A stretch of 64,000 nucleotides of DNA. Source: a phage. The stretch lies in the sequence record PZ674595.1; one strand, 5' to 3'. Each line of letters opens with the position of its first letter. Position 1 is the first letter of the stretch. Below are positions 3,029 through 50,543 of this stretch, in pieces. The notes under the pieces were generated by a model. That model made no database searches, had not been told where the DNA came from, and was given only the letters and a program-made list of their open reading frames with translations. The position numbers and the translations under genes are program-made.

Positions 3029-6000
3029 CTTCTCACTTGGGGAGTCGGCTCTAAAAGCAGAAAACGCGGTGAAGATTGCCAGAGAAGCTGGCTACACCGC
3101 TGTAATTTCAGCAGATAGCATGAATATTGCAAGTGTTATTCCACTACAACGTGCCGCTGGTGACGACATGGCGGTTATTTGTGGTGTGAAACTAAACATT
3201 GTTGATGATCCCACATACGAGCACCGGGCTAAACTTGCTAAAGAATCTATGAGATGTATGGAATCATTAGAGCGGGGACGTAACTACTCGTTTACCGCTC
3301 TAATTAAAAATGAGCAAGGATATCGCGACATCTGCGAACTAATGACGGCGGCCAACACACGAGAACAGTTCTACTTTGTACCGCGTCTCTCGCTCGAACA
3401 GTTGGTTTCTACATATGCCAAAGGCAACATCATCCTGCTTACTTCCGACATCGGTAGCGTGTTCCAACGCAACGATTTTGCAAAAATCATAAGCACACTG
3501 ATTACAGCGGGTGGAAAAGACAACTTCTATAGTGTGGTTTATCCGCACCCTACCCCATTCTACGACCAGATTAACGTCCGGGCGATGAAAGTCGCCAGCG
3601 CATTGAAAATAGAGCCAGTGGCGTTCTATCCCGCTTATTACGAATCGATCGACGATGCAGACATTAAAGACATTGCGCACATGGTTACGAACAACATCAA
3701 AATCGACCAGCCGCATCGTCTGCGTATCCCCCACCAGCGAGATAACGCCGTCAATGGTCGCCGCCATCTCCTTGAGGCGCTTAAAGCCTTCTCCGTTCGC
3801 ATGGATGTGCCGGTAACAGCTGCAATGGCCTCAACAACGCAGGATACCATTATCGATGCCTGCACATGGCGCTGGCATGAATTGCCGCCAGCACTGCCAA
3901 AGATGGCAGACGACGAGCCTGCAACGCTTATGAAACTGGCTGTTGCAGGGCTGCGTAAACGTCTTACCACAAAAGAGTTTGGCTACACACCACCTGCTTC
4001 TGAGAACAGGGTTTATGTTGAGCGGCTAAAGTACGAAATGGACACGCTGACTCGCCTGGGATTCTGTGGTTACTTCCTGATGGTGCGCGATCTGATGAAT
4101 CATAGTCGTGAAACTGGCATTCCCGTTGGGCCTGGTCGTGGTTCCTCTGCCGGTTCTCTGGTGGCGTGGTGCATAGGCATAACCAACGTCGACCCAATCC
4201 GTCACGGTCTTCTGTTTGAGCGTTTCATCAACCCTGAGCGTCTCGACTTGCCAGATGCGGATTTGGACTTCAGCCAGGCACGTCGCCATGAGGTGATCGA
4301 GTATCTGAATGAACGCTACGGCGAAGATTACGTTGCAGGCATTCCGAACTTCACCTACCTGGGCGCAGCCTCTGCACTACGTGACACCGCTCGTATTTAT
4401 GGTGTGGAGTCCGCAGATATGGCGGTATCAAAAGAACTGAAGAACGCTGAGGATGATAGCCTTCCATTGGAAGAACTGCGCGAACAACTGGCAAGTCTCG
4501 ACAAATACGCAACAAAATATCCTGATGCATTCAATGCAGCCTGCAAGTTACAAAGCCTTATGCGTGGCTTTGGTAGACATGCGGCAGGGATGATCGTAGC
4601 AGGTGTTCCTCTGACAGAACGTACACCGGTTGAGCGCCGTGGTGACGCGCGTTGTATCGCATTTGACAAGCGTTACTGCGAGGCTATGGGCCTAATTAAG
4701 CTGGACGTGCTTGGCCTGGCAACTCTCGATTTGCTCGATAGTGCAAAACGCTACATAAAAGAGAACACAGGTGAAGATATCAATCTTGATGCCATTTCTC
4801 TTGAAGATCGCAAGGTGCTGGATGGTTTTGCTGCTGGGTACACTCAAGGTGTTTTCCAGCTTGAATCAGGCCCAATGCGCAAGCTGCTTAAAGATTTAGG
4901 TGGTGGAATTGAGCCAATGAGCTTTAAAACGGTCGTCGCTACAACTGCGCTCTTCCGGCCGGGGCCAATTCAATCAGGCATGTTGGATGACTATGTTTCT
5001 GTCGCCAAAGGCTTTATGACGCCGGAATCATTACACCCCGTTCTTGATGAACTTACCGCGGAAACAAATGGCGTGATTCTCTATCAGGAACAGACGATGA
5101 ACGCGACTCGATTGCTTGCCGGCTTCACAATGGCTGAAGCTGACGCTGTGCGTTCCGCAATCGGTAAGAAGAACATGGAAAAAATGAAGAGCATGGGCGA
5201 GAAGTTCATCGTTCAGGCTCAAGCTGGCTGGATAGACGTTGAGCTGGAAGATGGCACTACACAGCGCATTCACCGTGCGGAACATTTTAAATGCGAAGAC
5301 GGAACTCTGAAAACTGTCGAAGAGGCACTTGAGCACGGCGCAAAACTACCTATAAACGCAGTACGCGTTACAGCGTCACATCCAGGGCTATCAGAGATGA
5401 AAGCGAAGGAGATCTGGACCGCATTTGAGAAAAACGGAGCCTATCAGTTCAATAAATCACACTCCGTTGCTTATTCTTTAATCAGTTATCAGTCTATGTG
5501 GCTAAAGACGCACTACCCTGCTGAGTTCTTCGCAGCTGCGCTCACCATTCTGGGCGAGGATAAGCATCAGGGGCTGGTGAAGGATGCGCTGACCTATGGC
5601 ATTCGCGTATTGCCACCAGACGTTAATGTGTCATCTAACCGAATTGAGATCCGCACACTCGAAGACGGCAGTCAGGCACTGTATGCGCCATTCTCTGCTG
5701 TGAAAGGCTGTTCTGAAAATGGTTGTCAGGCAATTATGCGTGCGCGTGAGAAAGTTGGTGGCAAATTCGAGTCAGTGGCACAATTCGATGAAGCGGTCGA
5801 GAAGCGTGCATGTAACAGTCGTGTACGCGAGTCGCTTCATAAAGTAGGGGCTTTTGCGTCAATTGAGCCAGGCAGTCTGCCAGCAACTGATCCTGAACGA
5901 CTGCGCGACCAGGCTGAGCTGATGGGCAATCTCATCATTGACGCTGTTAAAGCATCACGTCCGTTCGAAATGAATCCTAAGCGTTCTGCCGAAATCAACG

Positions 6001-6551: not shown

Positions 6552-6824
6552 AAAGAATTATGGCGCTTGTTGAGGAAGTCACTCCTCTTACGCACTTTGT
6601 TTTGCCATGCCGGCAGTTAGCTTCTGCCTTTGACTATTCATGCGGCAACCCCGCATTTCGCCACAATGGGCAATTCACTTTTATGGAATAAACTGGCCGT
6701 TGTGTCGATTTAATTAGCATGGCCTTACCATGCTAATTTATTCAACTTGTACAATCCTACAAATCTATCCACTCAGGCTTACACCGTCTTCGTTATTGTA
6801 GAAATGAGGATCATCAGCGTTGAA

Positions 6825-7040
6825 TCAGCTTAGAGCAACGACATTTGCTGCTGCTGGGCCTTTAGCCCCATTCTCGATAGAGAATTCGACCTGCTGGCCT
6901 TCTTCCAAAGTGCGGAAATTATTACTCTGAATTGCCGAAAAATGTACAAAAACATCTTTACTGCCATCAGCAGGAGAAATAAAGCCAAAGCCTTTATCAG
7001 AGTTAAACCATTTTACTAAACCAGTCATTTTATTAGACAT
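6825..7040 (-). CDS. Cold-shock protein, CspA family (closest in my recollection to CspB/G/I)
   Basis: Translation [38 protein letters not shown]... with RNP motifs KGFGFI and VFVHF; ATG at 7040 is internal Met33 of the 103-aa track ORF, preceded by GAAGGT. Confidence 0.9.
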
Positions 7041-7369
7041 AGATATTACCTTCTTAATTTTGTGAGCCACATAGTGCGGCGAGAATTTGATCTGTATAGA
7101 TTGGGACTTACTTAGGCACTTAAGGAGGAGACTCACGAAGAAGGGAAATCAGAAGATAACACTGAACTGAGACTGCTTTACTAAAACTGCTTACATAAGG
7201 TCTGTCTTGCAAACCAACGATGCTATTAACGCATACCCCTTCTTTTCATGCAACCTTTATTTTTCAAAGATAACTAATTTTTGTCACCATTGGTTTAGTA
7301 AACGTTAACGAACCAGACGATGCCAGACACCTTTACAGAGAACAGATGCCCGCCAATTGGCGGGCATCA

Positions 7370-32458: not shown

Positions 32459-33052
32459 ATGATTGCAGCCGAAAAAATCAAACAGCGAAAGCGCGACAAC
32501 TCTCTTCGTGACCTCTGGAGAACACCTGACTGGCTGTTTTCTGCCATTCAACGTTATCTTGGGGTGACATTTGATGTTGACGTTGCCTGCAACAAGGACA
32601 ATGCAAAGCTGCCTAATTTCATAGGCGTTGAGCGTGATGCTTTGAAATCTGAATGGGGACAGCCAGGTACAATTGCCTTCCTCAATCCCCCCTACTCCAA
32701 AATCTCCCCCTGGATTGATGCGGCTATACGTGAGCAGGCTCGCGGAGTTACAACAGTGATGCTAATTCCTCAATCCCTAGATACAAAGTGGTATGAGCGT
32801 GCAACAGAGTGTGCGAATGAGACGATTATTCTGTCTGGTGGCCGCGTAGCGTTTGTCGAGCCTGACGTCAATCTGGGTCAGGTAGAAGTAAACATCAACC
32901 CAGGTGGCAGTATGCTCGTTGTTTTTCGAGGATTCTGTCAGGACGCTGGGCACTCTATAAGCAAGATCCCTTTGGACGTCATGAAAAGTCTGGGAGGGTA
33001 TGATCCTGCGAATGTGATCAGGAAAAAAAGACCATCAAAGAAGGCTGCTTAG
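32459..33052 (+). CDS. phage-type DNA N6-adenine methyltransferase
   Basis: 197-aa ORF with FLNPPYS catalytic motif. Confidence 0.75.
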   Translation: MIAAEKIKQRKRDNSLRDLWRTPDWLFSAIQRYLGVTFDVDVACNKDNAKLPNFIGVERDALKSEWGQPGTIAFLNPPYSKISPWIDAAIREQARGVTTVMLIPQSLDTKWYERATECANETIILSGGRVAFVEPDVNLGQVEVNINPGGSMLVVFRGFCQDAGHSISKIPLDVMKSLGGYDPANVIRKKRPSKKAA

Positions 33053-33073
33053 TTTGTTCTGGCGTCTGTAATT

Positions 33074-33132
33074 AGCCTGCTTCTGTATATATAAATAACT
33101 ACATATTAATTATTAATATACGGAAGCAGGCT
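33074..33132. repeat. 59-bp inverted-repeat element (19-bp arms), copy 1 of 2
   Basis: AGCCTGCTTCTGTATATAT...ATATATACGGAAGCAGGCT; second copy at 63193-63253 shares an identical right arm. Confidence 0.6.
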
Positions 33133-33237
33133 GTTTTGTATCAGAGACTCCAGACCTGAACATCACTACAGAATCCACTAGAACCCCTTCCCAGACGCTT
33201 TAAAATCGATTTTATGAATCACTTTAAGGAAACTAAC

Positions 33238-33468
33238 ATGTCATACCCGACTAATGTCGTTGCGCTCGTAGAGAGCGATTTTCTGGCCCAGGCCCGTGAA
33301 ATGATGAAAGATCGCGAGCAGGCTTTCAACTTGTACGAATGGGCAATTAAGTGCTTGCATCTTGGGGAGCATCGCGAACTTGTTGAACAGCTTTTAGGTG
33401 AGTTGATCAACGAGGTGTTTGCCTTGAATGTTCAACTACATGGTCGAGAAAATAATCAATCGAAATGA
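33238..33468 (+). CDS. hypothetical protein
   Basis: Track ORF 33214-33468; likely start at second Met (MSYPTN) behind AAGGAAA. Confidence 0.35.
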   Translation: MSYPTNVVALVESDFLAQAREMMKDREQAFNLYEWAIKCLHLGEHRELVEQLLGELINEVFALNVQLHGRENNQSK

Positions 33469-33479
33469 TAGATAAGTAC

Positions 33480-34000
33480 AAACTATTCATAAAGTGAATT
33501 GTAAGTGCTAAGATCTGATAGTTTCCAGTCGTAGACTGGAGACTCGACCTGATGGGTGGGGGTAAGCGTCACTGGCGTCAGGTTTAAAAAAGCTCACTAC
33601 CAGCGTAGAACCGGTGCCGTTTAGGTGTCGGGGAAGGGGGAACCAAAGTGAGCGGAGACAAGGGTCACTTTATGATTGTCGAGTCTGGGGTGTTTCGAGA
33701 GGTTGAATCCAGTACTCCCCTTCATAAAGTGTGGGAAGATCTCGGTTCTGGGGTGCTGTCATCCATAACTTCCCAAGTCTAAGCTGGCAGTAGACTTAGG
33801 CCATAACTTTTCAGGTTATGAAACGACCAGGTTGGTGAGGGATTTTTATACTCACCTCCCTGGGAGAGTATTACCTGAAAAGACAACCTCTCACTTCGTT
33901 CGAGGTGAACTTCACTCACTTCGTTCGTTCAGTTCAGGTTTATAAAAACCTGTTCTGGGAAGTAATTTGTTTATTTTAATAATTATTAACACGCACGCGT
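33480..34000. other. ORF-free structured region (candidate ncRNA or cis-acting site)
   Basis: About 520 bp without any ORF on either strand in a densely packed genome; several hairpins (CCAGTC-GTAGA-CTGG, GGTGAGGGATTTTTATACTCACC, AGGTTTATAAAAACCT); ends with alternating Pu/Py palindrome CACGCACGCGTGTGCGCACGCGCG. Confidence 0.4.
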
Positions 34001-34054
34001 GTGCGCACGCGCGAGGAAAAAAAAATCGGCGCGGCGCTTGATTCAGGAGTTTAT

Positions 34055-34648
34055 ATGACGACGAAGACACCAGCCCGATCGCAAGAAAAAACTCGCAAAA
34101 AAGCCAAAAACAAAAATTCTCCCCGCACCAATTCCACAACGCCTGTCGTAGAGTTCAATCCCCAGCTTAAAACCGTGAAAATCTTCAGTGATGGCTCTTG
34201 CCTTAAAAATCCGGGTGGCCCGGGCGGTTACGGTATAGTTCTCCAGTATCGTGGTGAGGAACGCGAGTTCTCAGATGGTTTTCATAGCACCACCAATAAC
34301 CGCATGGAGATGATGGGGGCACTTATTGGGCTGGAGCGTTTGAAATATCCATGCAACGTTATTTTGCACTCTGATAGCCAGTATCTGAAAAACGGCATGA
34401 CACAGTGGATGAAATGGTGGAAACGCAATGGATGGGTGACTTCTGACAAAAAACCGGTAAAGAATGTTGATCTGTGGAAGCGTCTGGATGAGGCTGCAAG
34501 TCGACATAATGTTCGCTGGAAGTGGGTTAAAGGTCACGCCGGGCATCGTGAAAATGAAATATGTGATCGACTCGCGAAGATCGCAGCTTTTTCCGCAGCA
34601 GATATGCCTCACAAGAAAGATATTGGTTTTGTTTACAACAAGAAGTAA
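34055..34648 (+). CDS. rnhA: ribonuclease HI with basic N-terminal extension
   Basis: [74 protein letters not shown] as in E. coli RNase HI; ATG at 34055 behind CAGGAG. Confidence 0.85.
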
Positions 34649-34793
34649 GTAAGTGTTTACCTATCATTTTAAATCATGTATCTTATCAGCGTCAGGATGA
34701 CAATGTGTCGGTAAGACACAGTTCCAGGATGGAACGAGAAAGGCGGCTGGCAATCGCCAGCCGCAACTCTTTCTGACACTGGATGGAGTCCAC

Positions 34794-45123: not shown

Positions 45124-45280
45124 CCCGTCTCCTTTATTTTAATTTGCGCAATTGTCGCCTTGTAGTGTACTCCAGCTACGACATTTAATCATTTATGAGA
45201 AATGCTGTTATCACATGGCAGACATAAGGCCATTTTGTTACTATCAAGCCCCTTTTCACTACAAAGAAGTAATGCCTACT

Positions 45281-47314
45281 ATGACCCAAGTCGCGAAGAA
45301 AATTCTGGTGACGTGCGCGCTGCCGTACGCTAACGGCTCAATCCACCTCGGCCATATGCTGGAGCACATCCAGGCTGATGTCTGGGTTCGTTACCAGCGA
45401 ATGCGCGGCCACGAGGTTAATTTCATCTGTGCCGACGATGCCCACGGTACGCCGATCATGCTGAAAGCACAGCAGCTTGGTATCACACCGGAGCAGATGA
45501 TTGGCGAAATGAGTCAGGAACACCAGACTGATTTCGCAGGCTTTAACATCAGCTATGACAACTATCACTCGACGCACAGCGAAGAGAACCGTCAGTTGTC
45601 TGAGCTTATCTATACTCGCCTGAAAGAGAACGGTTTTATTAAAAACCGCACTATCTCTCAGTTGTACGACCCGGAAAAAGGCATGTTCCTGCCGGATCGT
45701 TTTGTAAAAGGCACCTGCCCGAAATGTAAAGCGCCAGATCAATACGGCGATAACTGTGAAGTCTGCGGCGCAACATATAGCCCGACTGAATTGATCGAGC
45801 CGAAATCGGTGGTTTCTGGCGCTACCCCGGTAATGCGTGATTCCGAACACTTCTTCTTTGATCTGCCTTCTTTCAGCGAAATGTTGCAGGCATGGACCCG
45901 CAGCGGCGCGTTGCAGGAGCAGGTGGCGAACAAAATGCAGGAATGGTTTGAATCCGGCCTGCAACAGTGGGATATCTCCCGAGATGCGCCTTACTTCGGT
46001 TTTGAAATTCCGAACGCGCCGGGCAAATATTTCTACGTCTGGCTGGACGCGCCGATTGGCTACATGGGTTCCTTCAAGAATCTGTGCGACAAGCGCGGCG
46101 ATACCACCAGCTTCGATGAATACTGGAAGAAAGACTCCACCGCCGAGCTGTACCACTTCATCGGTAAAGATATTGTTTACTTCCACAGCCTGTTCTGGCC
46201 TGCCATGCTGGAAGGCAGCAACTTCCGCAAGCCGACCAACCTGTTTGTTCACGGCTATGTGACGGTGAACGGCGCGAAGATGTCCAAGTCTCGCGGCACC
46301 TTTGTTAAAGCCAGCACCTGGCTGAATCATTTTGACGCCGACAGCCTGCGTTACTACTACACTGCGAAACTCTCTTCGCGCATTGATGATATCGATCTCA
46401 ACCTGGAGGATTTCGTTCAGCGCGTGAATGCCGATATCGTGAACAAAGTGGTTAACCTGGCCTCCCGTAATGCAGGCTTTATCAACAAGCGTTTTGACGG
46501 CGTGCTGGCAAGCGAACTGGCTGACCCGCAACTGTACAAAACCTTTACTGATGCCGCTGAAGTGATTGGCGAAGCATGGGAAAGCCGCGAATTTGGTAAA
46601 GCTATCCGTGAAATCATGGCATTGGCTGACCTGGCTAACCGCTATGTCGATGAACAGGCTCCGTGGGTGGTGGCGAAGCAGGAAGGACGCGATGCCGATC
46701 TGCAGGCGATTTGCTCTATGGGCATTAACCTGTTCCGCGTGCTGATGACGTACCTGAAGCCGGTACTGCCGAAACTGACTGAACGTGCAGAAGCATTCCT
46801 GAATACAGAACTGACCTGGGATGGTATCCAGCAACCGCTGCTGGGCCATAAAGTAAATCCGTTCAAGGCACTGTATAACCGCATCGATATGAAGCAGGTT
46901 GAAGCACTGGTGGAAGCATCCAAAGAAGAAGTGAAAGCCACAGCCGCACCGGTAACTGGCCCACTGGCTGACGACCCGATTCAGGAAACTATCACCTTTG
47001 ACGACTTCGCCAAAGTTGACCTGCGCGTGGCGCTGATTGAAAACGCAGAGTTTGTAGAAGGTTCTGACAAACTGCTTCACCTGACGCTGGATCTCGGTGG
47101 TGAAAAGCGTAATGTCTTCTCAGGCATCCGTTCCGCTTATCCAGATCCACAGGCACTGATTGGTCGTCACACCATTATGGTGGCTAACCTGGCACCACGT
47201 AAAATGCGCTTCGGTATCTCTGAAGGCATGGTGATGGCTGCTGGCCCCGGCGGGAAAGATATCTTCCTGTTAAGCCCGGATGCTGGTGCTAAACCTGGCC
47301 ACCAGGTTAAGTAA
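45281..47314 (+). CDS. metG: methionyl-tRNA synthetase
   Basis: 677-aa product from ATG 45281 ([29 protein letters not shown]...KMSKS...); near-identical to E. coli MetG as recalled; track ORF begins upstream at 45152. Confidence 0.97.
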
Positions 47315-48719: not shown

Positions 48720-48839
48720 CGGTTGCAACTTATTGATAATGGCGGTCACAATTTGATTCTTTTCTATAAGAACCCGTTGATCGCCACTACTCCCCTCCCA
48801 TACCAGCAATCACATCATTAAATATCAATAGGTTATGGT

Positions 48840-49700
48840 TGTTTATACAAATAAGAAAACAACTAAATAACAGATCAACGAAACGTCAACGCTTTCACCC
48901 GATTTGGTCTAAAAAATTGACGTTTTCACACATCACTTCTTATACCCGTAACTCTACGCAGCAGACAGCGCCACAGCGTCCAATTTTCACCACAGACGAC
49001 CCAACACACTACCAACAAAAACACACGCTCAAAATCGCTCCCGTTGCGTTACACAACCATATAAACAACTTATTTTCAGGCATAACAAAACAACTAAATA
49101 ACACACATGCCATTTCCAAAAACAACCAACCTCTTTATGGCAGGCTACCGAAAAGACCCACCTCTTCTCCCCAGTCTACCGAAAAGACCCACCTCTTCTC
49201 CCCAGGCTACCGGACAACCAACCTAACTTTCACAGGCAATCCGAAAACATTCATACGCGCGATACCCACGACACGCCATTCCCCAAACAGCGAAGAAACA
49301 CCAGAATCACTGAAACCCCAACGAAGCCTGTAACCGCAAGGATTCTCTCAATCCCAAAAGACACGAAACAGAACAATCACGGGAAACGCCATTACCCAAT
49401 ACACGAATAACTACAAAAGCCTTTCACACACTCCAGACAAACAACTCAAACACAACAACGAAAGGAATCGCCCACCTGCCATTACTCCATACACGGAGAA
49501 GAACAATCACCAAAACGACGAGAACACCCCATAGAAGAACCACCGCAAAACGAACGAAACCACATACACCGACAGAGAAAACAACACACCCAATTCACCA
49601 ACAGAAATAGTCGCCGTATAGAACATTCTGGAAGGAGTGAGCATTAACGCCTATAGAGAGGTTGAGACAGATAAAACACAACATGTATAGCGAAGAAGCC
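48840..49700. repeat. strand-asymmetric C/A-rich, G-poor tract with tandem 29-bp repeats
   Basis: Plus strand almost devoid of G over ~860 bp; perfect tandem copies of CTACCGAAAAGACCCACCTCTTCTCCCCA at 49155-49183 and 49186-49214 plus a degenerate third; track ORF 48839-49333 judged a composition artefact. Confidence 0.6.
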
Positions 49701-49810
49701 AGGTATGTATAAGTGGGGAGAGAAGGAGGGGTGTCGCCTCCTTTTTCGTATTTATTCAACTCCTGATTTTACCCCCCCGTAACACCCCTACGGTCAGCCT
49801 TCGGTCCATA

Positions 49811-49945
49811 CAGGGAAAAGGCTGCATCCCGCTACAGAAACGGCTGGGTTGCCTTCGGGGAACGGCTGGAGGTTTTCAGGGAAACGGTCGAGTTGCCTGT
49901 GTGGATTTCGGGAAAAGGCTCGATGCCGGTTCAGGAACGGTGGCG
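49811..49945. repeat. array of six ~14-bp direct repeats, consensus CRGGGAAAMGGCYG, spaced 21-24 bp
   Basis: Copies starting near 49811, 49835, 49856, 49877, 49909, 49932. Confidence 0.6.
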
Positions 49946-50324
49946 TACCGGTATAGCGTGAGGGAGAGTTGCGGCTGTCCACCTGTAATGTGCGGGAAGA
50001 AGAGAGGCGCTCACGTGCAGGCGAACTTACTTACCGCTGGATTCCCTCTGAATGCCCAGCTACAGCGTAATTGTGCCAGACAGTCAGCGGGTCACAATCG
50101 ATTTCAGTAGGTTTTCGGGGAGAGGATTATTCTGCCCACCAGCCCCGCGGCGCGCGTAGAGCAGAATATCGTAAATACTGGCTCTCGTGTCGTTCCCGGA
50201 TATTCACTGCCAAGCCTGGCTTTCCCGACATAAAATCCTTTTTCGCCTTTGTCTTATTTCGATAATAACACCAACAAGTAAACAACATATTTAGACGTTA
50301 TAGAAACGAAGTGAGGATGAAGAG

Positions 50325-50543
50325 ATGATTAAGATGCCTGTGACGGTTGAGGTGTGGGGCGTGGATTCCCTGGCTGAGTGTCTGGATGCAGTGGGGCCGG
50401 AGTTGTACCGCAAGTTGTGGTCGTTCGTCCCGGCAGAAGGGGAATCGCCCAAAGGGAAGGATATCTGGCACCTGCTGAGTGAAGATGAAAAGCGGGAGCT
50501 GGTGGGCGCGGTACACAGCGAGTTCCCGGGCGACGAAGATTAA
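50325..50543 (+). CDS. hypothetical small protein
   Basis: 72-aa acidic ORF; RBS GAGGATGAAGAG; terminator follows. Confidence 0.4.
   Translation: MIKMPVTVEVWGVDSLAECLDAVGPELYRKLWSFVPAEGESPKGKDIWHLLSEDEKRELVGAVHSEFPGDED

Follow-up and report, generated by a model that had tools for sequence, protein, structure and literature searches.

To our knowledge, only a handful of large structured RNAs still lack a function (OLE, GOLLD, ROOL, HEARO and raiA), and almost none of them come from genetically tractable enterobacteria. The immunity RNAs of P1/P7 (c4), P4 (CI) and N15 (CA) are 77-90 nt long, are processed from longer transcripts and work through short complementarity to sites in the same operon. 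RNA II of ColE1 measures ~555 nt, and its origin is located at a ...GGAAAAA/CGCC junction. In extrachromosomal mycobacteriophage prophages, a transcribed non-coding region, not a Rep protein, was proposed to drive replication (Wetzel et al. 2020, PMC7157519). Here, we analyzed a 64,000-nt stretch of sequence record PZ674595.1 (hereafter the window), with a focus on the gap between an open reading frame (ORF) of 76 amino acids (orf76) and an RNase HI gene (rnhA). The core of this gap very probably encodes a structured plus-strand RNA under selection, and our preferred interpretation, at a probability of about 0.6, is a stand-alone, trans-acting gene for a folded non-coding RNA of ~450 nt (~33520-33985) that belongs to phage-plasmids of the SSU5/pHCM2 type.

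Like ROOL and GOLLD, which are found in Firmicutes prophages and phages and are represented in Rfam, the RNA considered here is large, multi-domain, apparently pseudoknotted and borne by temperate phages or prophages; all of them appear to form separate transcription units rather than leaders, and no function is known for any. However, our RNA matches no covariance model, its hosts are Enterobacteriaceae and it is smaller than GOLLD; for oligomerisation, its self-complementary AGAUCU loop is no more than a hint. The c4, CI and CA immunity RNAs are likewise non-coding RNAs of phage-plasmids or satellites located in an early or regulatory region, but ours is ~450 nt long and its complementarity to the rest of the window stays at chance level. 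With seven 11-nt complementary matches in 64 kb against ~7 expected, we rejected an antisense immunity RNA of this type. The cspA thermoregulator leader (RF01766) is also a structured region of several hundred nt on the 5' side of a gene; a leader always accompanies its gene, whereas here the downstream gene changes or sits on the opposite strand. Finally, the mycobacteriophages with RNA-based origins lack repA, whereas SSU5-like plasmids are typed IncFIB, and we neither expected nor saw homology between the two.

Judged by its sequence matches, the window is part of an SSU5/pHCM2-type phage-plasmid, not a plain phage. Over positions 33200-34700, E. coli plasmid pc61-55 (NZ_OQ029475.1) matches at 100% identity and Escherichia phages PhiR41_1 and Cyrano at 98%, whereas identity to Salmonella phage SSU5 and several Klebsiella phages is 78-82%. 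The gap is surrounded by a co-oriented DNA-metabolism block composed of SbcCD-like genes, nrdAB, thyA, DHFR, a 3'-5' exonuclease gene, dam, orf76, the gap and rnhA. A first-pass annotation of the window had reported a long ORF-free region at this place, which our analysis bears out with corrected boundaries, i.e., 33469-34054 (586 bp), between the stop of the 76/84-amino-acid ORF (33468) and the rnhA ATG (34055). With a 50-amino-acid cut-off, 33469-33911 is the longest stretch of the 64-kb window that is ORF-free on both strands; with a 60-amino-acid cut-off, the gap ranks second after 49334-49793. All ORFs inside the gap have at most 46 amino acids, except for a spurious minus-strand ORF of 75 amino acids at 33912-34139. 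Close relatives differ by 1-2-nt indels within the RNA core, and no small ORF is conserved among relatives (L159 has no plus-strand ORF and L075 no minus-strand ORF). The gap core is without conserved coding potential, and we rejected a small-ORF reading of the gap given that no ORF is common to all members.

The non-coding sequence is better conserved than its surroundings. Across 33543-34021, identity reaches 88-92% even in elements from Klebsiella, Salmonella, Enterobacter and Citrobacter, whereas the surrounding 1.5 kb shows only 77-82%. Compared with three relatives (L005, L007 and L003), the segments of the locus have the following nucleotide identities:

RNA core, 33544-33965: 96.0% (L005), 92.1% (L007) and 90.5% (L003)
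dam: 75-76%
orf76: 74-78%
rnhA: 72-78%

The RNA core is thus the most conserved segment among the genes compared around the locus, and a non-coding stretch that evolves several times slower than its coding neighbours argues for strong selection on the core.

A search with the gap alone recovered 687 PLSDB plasmids of Klebsiella, Escherichia, Enterobacter, Salmonella, Citrobacter and Cronobacter, nearly all non-mobilizable; the carriers inspected are ~106-134 kb in size. The gap sequence was also present in 12 phage records, SSU5 included. Of 5426 complete E. coli genomes, 232 (~4%) carry it, almost always on a plasmid of ~106-112 kb. None of the eleven records inspected has a gene annotated in the core, apart from rnhA calls over-extended into its 3' part. 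Using homologues of the 76-amino-acid ORF and DNA patterns, we further recovered a divergent clade (L156, L157, L158, L175 and L178; ~61% identity to the window RNA) and intermediates between it and the main clade (L159 at 79% and L160 at 85% identity). No third clade emerged: a plasmid search with the divergent-clade RNA gave 2 close records, and four IMG/VR scans (one seeded with ORF76, three with DNA patterns) returned the two known clades only. When one genome per GTDB species was scanned with a pattern, nothing came up besides members from Kluyvera and Buttiauxella and ~10 unrelated chance matches. For metagenome searching, TTCTGGGNTNNTGNNNNCCANAAC is intended as the DNA pattern of the RNA. 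The family therefore appears confined to SSU5-like phage-plasmids of Enterobacteriaceae, in two clades (Escherichia, Klebsiella, Salmonella, Enterobacter, Citrobacter, Cronobacter, Kluyvera and Buttiauxella-type).

The region was also said to be hairpin-rich, which held: the plus-strand RNA 33530-34030 has a folding energy of -173.2 kcal/mol (z = -3.76, with 0/100 shuffles as good). Since the minus strand folds well too (z = -4.5), folding energy alone cannot identify the strand. We therefore rely on the alignments, in which the following elements were recognized:

33544-33965, plus strand: conserved structured RNA core of several domains, ~420 nt, from covariation, pairing and identity
33547-54/33576-83, plus strand: covarying helix
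33593-98/33647-52, plus strand: covarying helix
33666-72/33725-31, plus strand: covarying helix
33732-38/33769-75, plus strand: covarying helix, UGGGAAG/CUUCCCA versus AGGAAGG/CCUUCCU in the divergent clade
33777-83/33795-801, plus strand: covarying helix, 6/7 pairs covary, GUCUAAG/CUUAGGC versus ACCGGGA/UCUCGGU
33802-07/33815-20, plus strand: covarying helix
33834-37/33853-56, plus strand: covarying helix
33906-11/33931-36, plus strand: covarying helix
33639-44/33744-49: candidate pseudoknot, loop GGUUCU with GGAACC at 33639-44, one compensatory change
33698-705/33884-91: candidate pseudoknot, pairing kept with at least one compensatory change
33808-11/33877-80: candidate pseudoknot, pairing kept with at least one compensatory change
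33731-33775, plus strand: hairpin with a 30-nt loop (AUCUCGGUUCUGGGGUGCUGUCAUCCAUAA), the best conserved block

In the main-clade alignment (61 unique sequences, pairs placed by RNAalifold), the structure comprises 123 pairs, 9 of which show compensatory double changes, including a series of U-A, U-G and C-G at a single position, and almost none of which is broken. When the alignment was extended to 15 sequences spanning the main, intermediate and divergent clades (1825 cells scored), 97.6% of the cells were standard pairs and 43 of the 123 pairs had double changes. Shuffled alignments gave 26.5±2.6 such pairs (0/500 reached 43), controls in which the 3' partners were slid by one to three columns gave 2-6, and the covariation score was 0.315 versus 0.18. 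The best-supported helices are 33777-83/33795-801, 33547-54/33576-83, 33666-72/33725-31, 33732-38/33769-75, 33593-98/33647-52 and 33906-11/33931-36. The three crossing helices stay paired with at least one compensatory change each, which suggests that they may form pseudoknots. Moreover, G-U pairs occupy 11% of the cells, and pairing of the same structure drops from 97.6% on the plus strand to 87.0% when reverse-complemented, indicating that the RNA is on the plus strand. These comparisons, together with a core that outconserves the flanking genes and a promoter-like motif kept in position in every clade, strongly support the earlier suggestion that the gap encodes a structured RNA; the conserved fold that a comparative check was to look for is found across relatives, in a region that is both present and conserved.

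Conservation is concentrated outside the stems. The hairpin 33731-33775 is nearly invariant in the main clade, where variation is restricted to position 33752 and to 3 of the 61 unique sequences. Its loop holds an invariant GAUC within the self-complementary AGAUCU, which reads GGAUCU in the divergent clade; a kissing dimer might form here, an idea that we treat as a lead only. Junctions and loops invariant across both clades are GAUGGGUGGRGG, CUGGC, UACCAGCG, GAUCUYGRUUCUGGGGU, CUGGCAKUAGA, CUCUCACUYCGUUCGAG and UUCUGGG. By analogy, covarying stems combined with invariant junctions and loops are the pattern of tertiary-folded functional RNAs.

These data bear on two further explanations. In the first, the region would be non-functional or recently homogenised by recombination between phage-plasmids, with incidental structure; the unusual uniformity of the main clade (90-100% identity) would fit, as would a divergent-clade RNA that is no better conserved than its genes (62% versus 65-68% identity). 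Nevertheless, 97.6% of cells remain paired at 61% identity through compensatory changes, loops and junctions are invariant, and variants within a clade are compensatory as well (U-A, U-G and C-G at one position), leaving this explanation barely credible. In the second, the element would act as DNA, i.e., as a duplex origin or unwinding element, a recombination site at a cargo hotspot, a single-stranded DNA hairpin initiation signal or a Z-DNA element. Hairpins of single-stranded DNA tolerate G·T pairs, synteny ends just after an A-run beside a variable cargo region, an AT-rich spacer is present, and an alternating purine-pyrimidine tract is conserved as a property and not as a sequence. In contrast, pairing is strand-asymmetric (97.6% versus 87.0%), and covariation extends to the long-range, pseudoknotted helices. 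A promoter-like motif of duplex DNA stays in place immediately upstream, and the core contains no iterons or repeated protein-binding motifs, iteron-like repeats being located at 49120-49242. We consider a DNA-level site very improbable.

Predicted signals of a transcription unit surround the core:

33068-33140, plus strand: long hairpin with an AT loop and a T-run (TTTT) after dam (AGCCTGCTTCTGTATAT...ATATACGGAAGCAGGCTGTTTT), from sequence
33486-33514, plus strand: predicted sigma-70 promoter with -35 TTCATA (33486-91), a 17-nt spacer, extended -10 TGc (33506-08) and -10 TAAGAT (33509-14)
33520-33544, plus strand: 5' hairpin of the predicted transcript, arms 33520-30 and 33534-44, -14.9 kcal/mol, z = -4.9
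33966-33988, plus strand: AT-rich spacer, variable in sequence and length (~25-50 nt; ~75 nt in L159)

In every clade, a -35-like hexamer is followed after 16-17 nt by a good -10 with, nearly always, TGn in front of it, while the spacer sequence is unconserved (e.g., TTTAAA-17-TGaTAAAAT, TTCAAA-17-TGaTACAAT and TTTACC-17-TGcTAACAT). A generic promoter scan did not list the motif at 33486-33514 because its -35 is weak. The motif would place the RNA start site near 33520-33522, and the 5' hairpin begins ~7 nt after the -10. Among main-clade lineages, the arms of this hairpin are wholly different yet complementary (CCAGTC/GACTGG, CCGGA/TCCGG, TTTCGA/TCGAAA and CTGGCAGA/TCTGCCAG); it is weak in the divergent clade. 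Conservation in shape and not in sequence fits a putative 5' stabilising stem. Upstream, the hairpin at 33068-33140, whose stem drew several chance microRNA-type Rfam matches, is likely a terminator separating a module of orf76 and the RNA from the upstream operon. The core ends at its 3' side with the invariant UUCUGGGAAGUAA, and the spacer that follows is possibly an RNase E processing zone or the 3' end of a stable RNA.

The far side of the spacer leads into the downstream gene:

33989-34013: alternating purine-pyrimidine (CA/CG) tract of 25 nt with perfect alternation, the longest in the window
34009-34037, plus strand: GC-rich hairpin with an AGG-A9 run as its loop (34014-34025); UUGAUUC and the ribosome-binding site of rnhA come next
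34055-34648, plus strand: RNase HI gene (PF00075, E = 1.6e-44, residues 40-178)

The alternating tract had been presented as a 24-bp palindrome about 30 bp before the ribosome-binding site, within a region ending at 34000. Its alternation and distance stand (25 nt, ending 31 nt before AGGAG at 34045-34049; the next longest tract in the window has 15 nt), but it runs past that end, to 34013, and is only partly palindromic: the symmetry is perfect over an 8-bp core (CACGCGTG), and the overlapping 12-nt arms reach 92% complementarity. Relatives of the main clade have tracts of 14-28 nt that differ in exact sequence, and the divergent clade has none. As a focus of interest the tract is not supported, the functional core being 33544-33965 and the tract separate from it, less conserved and restricted to the main clade. 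Further on, the motif GCGCGAG(G)AAA is common to all clades and kept where rnhA is replaced; synteny breaks directly after it, from which we conclude that the RNA borders a variable cargo hotspot.

The product of the downstream gene was recognized correctly as RNase H-like, and RNase HI follows the RNA in most main-clade members. Framing the region around rnhA nevertheless fails. The element persists beside betT in an Enterobacter plasmid (L010), and its neighbour in L008 encodes a hypothetical protein. In L160, a Buttiauxella plasmid, the next genes are Gabija-like and on the opposite strand, yet the RNA remains 85% conserved; and in the divergent clade a 200-amino-acid non-RNase H protein and then a Tad2-like anti-Thoeris protein are encoded downstream. 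Because the downstream gene varies, the gap is not an rnhA leader, and an RNA sequence kept whatever follows speaks against any leader tied to one gene and in favour of an independent function. We did weigh a cis-acting leader (a riboswitch-like sensor, attenuator or stabiliser), for which the GC-rich hairpin, U-rich stretch and ribosome-binding site would serve as expression platform. Such a leader would be in line with the GC-rich hairpin and UUGAUUC right before the ribosome-binding site; with the likeness of the site sequence (GAUUCUGGAG or GAUUCAGGAG) to the conserved UUCUGGG motifs found in the RNA; with covarying stems and conserved junctions, which are also typical of riboswitches; and with the lack of a terminator between the RNA and rnhA and of a detectable rnhA promoter in the AT-rich spacer. 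Besides the inconstant downstream gene, however, the variable spacer of ~25-75 nt between core and hairpin and a ~420-nt core that far exceeds the size of known leaders speak against it, and we deem it distinctly unlikely.

The same border raises the main rival explanation, namely that the RNA serves as a pre-primer for replication, which would make the locus a (lytic) origin of the ColE1 type that depends on an R-loop. As is generally known of RNA II of ColE1/pMB1, that RNA is a structured transcript of ~500 nt made by host RNA polymerase, lies beside a purine/A-run next to GC-rich DNA and has a link to RNase H; the RNA studied here is similar in each respect, its polymerase being apparently that of the host and the RNase H link consisting of the neighbouring gene. 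The transcript from the 33486-33514 promoter would fold and remain hybridised with its template in the GC-rich tract, RNase HI would cut at the purine/A9 run (34014-34025), and the resulting 3'-OH would prime rightward DNA synthesis. Consistent with this scenario, the locus is within the DNA-metabolism block, RNase HI comes directly after it in most elements, the predicted start is ~500 nt upstream of the A-run, and the first 200 nt are G-rich (GC skew +0.33). The AT-rich spacer, the GC block and GCGCGAG(G)AAA are retained even without rnhA, and RNA-based prophage origins have been reported for mycobacteriophages (PMC7157519).

Against such an origin, RNase HI is not a constant neighbour (it is not adjacent in the divergent clade, L008, L010 or L160), and the divergent clade, lacking the alternating tract, has only GAGAAA. 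The distance from core to A-run varies from 44 to 85 nt, and when folded the A-run is a mere loop of the GC hairpin beside the ribosome-binding site. The RNA furthermore shows no match to the RNAI model and no internal antisense promoter (the sole minus-strand promoter-like site, 33527 to 33498, points away), orf76 encodes no Rop-like fold, and loops rather than stems are most conserved. The plasmids are typed IncFIB, i.e., with a RepA-type replicon, and GC skew gives no origin signal; it follows gene orientation in a monotonic rise along the reconstructed 110.9-kb plasmid and is hence uninformative on the origin. On balance, we find a pre-primer unlikely.

Returning to the stand-alone RNA gene, we propose the following sequence of events. 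Host RNA polymerase would begin transcription of the RNA near 33520 at a dedicated sigma-70 promoter with an extended -10 (33486-33514), and the transcript would open with the stabilising 5' hairpin. As no canonical terminator was found, the stable RNA would probably be freed by processing in the AU-rich spacer 33966-33988, and read-through may also feed rnhA or another downstream cargo gene. The RNA would then work in trans as a folded molecule, probably bound to a partner; its independence of the downstream gene, the concentration of conservation in loops and junctions, and the low evolutionary rate across host genera point to such a trans-acting role. Considering that conservation of the RNA across host genera far exceeds that of the proteins encoded by the element, we regard a conserved component of the host or of core replication as a likelier partner than a phage protein that evolves fast.

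Several points weigh against this interpretation. Both the trans mode and the type of partner are what we infer, and no recognisable catalytic motif, target or protein partner was identified. The promoter, start site and 3' end are sequence-based predictions, and with no canonical intrinsic terminator on the plus strand after the core, a discrete RNA species is likewise only predicted. Since only two deep clades exist, many compensatory changes are shared by descent, so that they represent few independent events. In addition, recombination between phage-plasmids at the module boundary could explain part of the excess conservation in the main clade. A bolder version, which we put forward tentatively, is that the RNA could be the first large "ornate" class of enterobacterial mobile elements, ~450 nt long, tertiary-folded and possibly self-associating via the (A/G)GAUCU loop, with a new role either as a ribozyme or scaffold on a conserved host machine or in an RNA-primed lytic origin matured by the phage RNase HI.

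The covariance search proposed alongside the first-pass annotation assigned the element to no family: at gathering thresholds, Rfam 15 (4227 covariance models) gave a single match in the whole window, to cspA at 6800-7218. Permissive Rfam scans of 33000-34300, 33500-34060 and the divergent copy L156 yielded nothing but chance matches to microRNA or viral hairpins, with scores far under the thresholds. ARAGORN found 0 transfer RNA (tRNA) or transfer-messenger RNA (tmRNA) genes in the window, and nhmmer detected no paralogue of the RNA there, only the locus itself. We found no description of this RNA in the full-text literature on SSU5, pHCM2, phage-plasmids and structured phage RNAs. SSU5-like elements go unmentioned in the main text of a large-scale survey of viral contigs for candidate structured RNAs (PMC10690425), although the RNA may be listed anonymously in its supplementary lists. 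In our reading, the element would be an undescribed RNA family within a known kind, the large structured RNAs of phages and mobile elements. As a separate observation, the cspA match on the minus strand at 6800-7218 is full-length (RF01766, 185.7 bits), indicating that the phage-plasmid carries a CspA-type cold-shock gene with a long 5' untranslated region.

On the upstream side, one gene is constant:

33238-33468, plus strand: 76-amino-acid ORF (84 amino acids from the upstream ATG 33214), small, acidic and helical

It is the only gene constantly adjoining the RNA. Its family is narrow (29 protein clusters with 58-97% identity, all from SSU5-like elements) and has no real Pfam match; the AlphaFold model consists of three helices with a predicted local distance difference test score (pLDDT) of 78 and has no Foldseek match in the PDB with E below 6. 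With neither a Pfam match nor a PDB neighbour for this model, we rejected ORF76 as a Rop-like RNA-binding partner. Downstream, RNase HI carries an N-terminal extension of ~40 amino acids (34055-34174), rich in lysine, arginine, threonine and proline, which is outside the Pfam domain and varies in length among relatives.

The cargo hotspot holds diverse genes. In the Buttiauxella plasmid CP110081.1 (L160:3895-6231), genes for a Gabija-like OLD-family ATPase and a UvrD-like helicase are located on the opposite strand downstream of the RNA; in the divergent clade, L156:4605-4916 is a Tad2-like anti-Thoeris gene (PF11195, E = 2.5e-7); and in the Enterobacter plasmid, betT occupies L010:2265-3435. 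Elsewhere in the window, ~45280-47313 (plus strand) is a full-length methionine--tRNA ligase gene (metG) with apbC adjoining, according to the RefSeq annotation of the matching plasmid, and is an unusual phage cargo.

Two atypical sets of matches were noticed among relatives. In a Buttiauxella gaviniae contig (L163, NZ_LXEP01000001.1), the RNA profile matched 4827-5167 only from position 124 on; because the 5' third is replaced by unrelated sequence, this copy may be truncated or decayed. The 20-nt pattern AAMCTCTCACTYCGTTCGAG also matched ~10 contigs of unrelated phyla (L161-L173; Acidobacteriota, Saccharibacteria, Thermoplasmata and others), with ~4 expected by chance, and these had no wider similarity to the RNA beyond the pattern. 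With respect to repeats, an iteron origin at the locus was rejected, 33400-34100 containing no tandem repeats and only a 13-nt sequence that occurs twice. Four tandem 31-nt direct repeats (AAAAGACCCACCTCTTCTCCCCAGKCTACCG-like) are present at 49120-49242, with dispersed repeats nearby, in a stretch of ~1.6 kb (~48720-50330) without annotated gene in the matching plasmid; they may represent an iteron array, a centromere-like site or a non-coding element of some other kind.

The RNA is found in E. coli, Klebsiella and Salmonella, where gene deletion, complementation, pull-downs and structural work are routine, and its carrier family is widespread, as seen in the 687 PLSDB plasmids and ~4% of complete E. 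coli genomes, and can bear resistance genes. In pc61-55, blaCTX-M-55 adjoins ISEcp1 (L243:7171-9561, outside the window), making this RNA-bearing phage-plasmid a vector of an extended-spectrum beta-lactamase. The RNA also provides a sharp typing marker, with a cargo hotspot at the site just downstream. As the most conserved segment compared at the locus, and one that no inspected record annotates, it is likely to mark a central function in the life of these elements; should this function turn out to be replication or copy-number control, it would bear on resistance-gene dosage.

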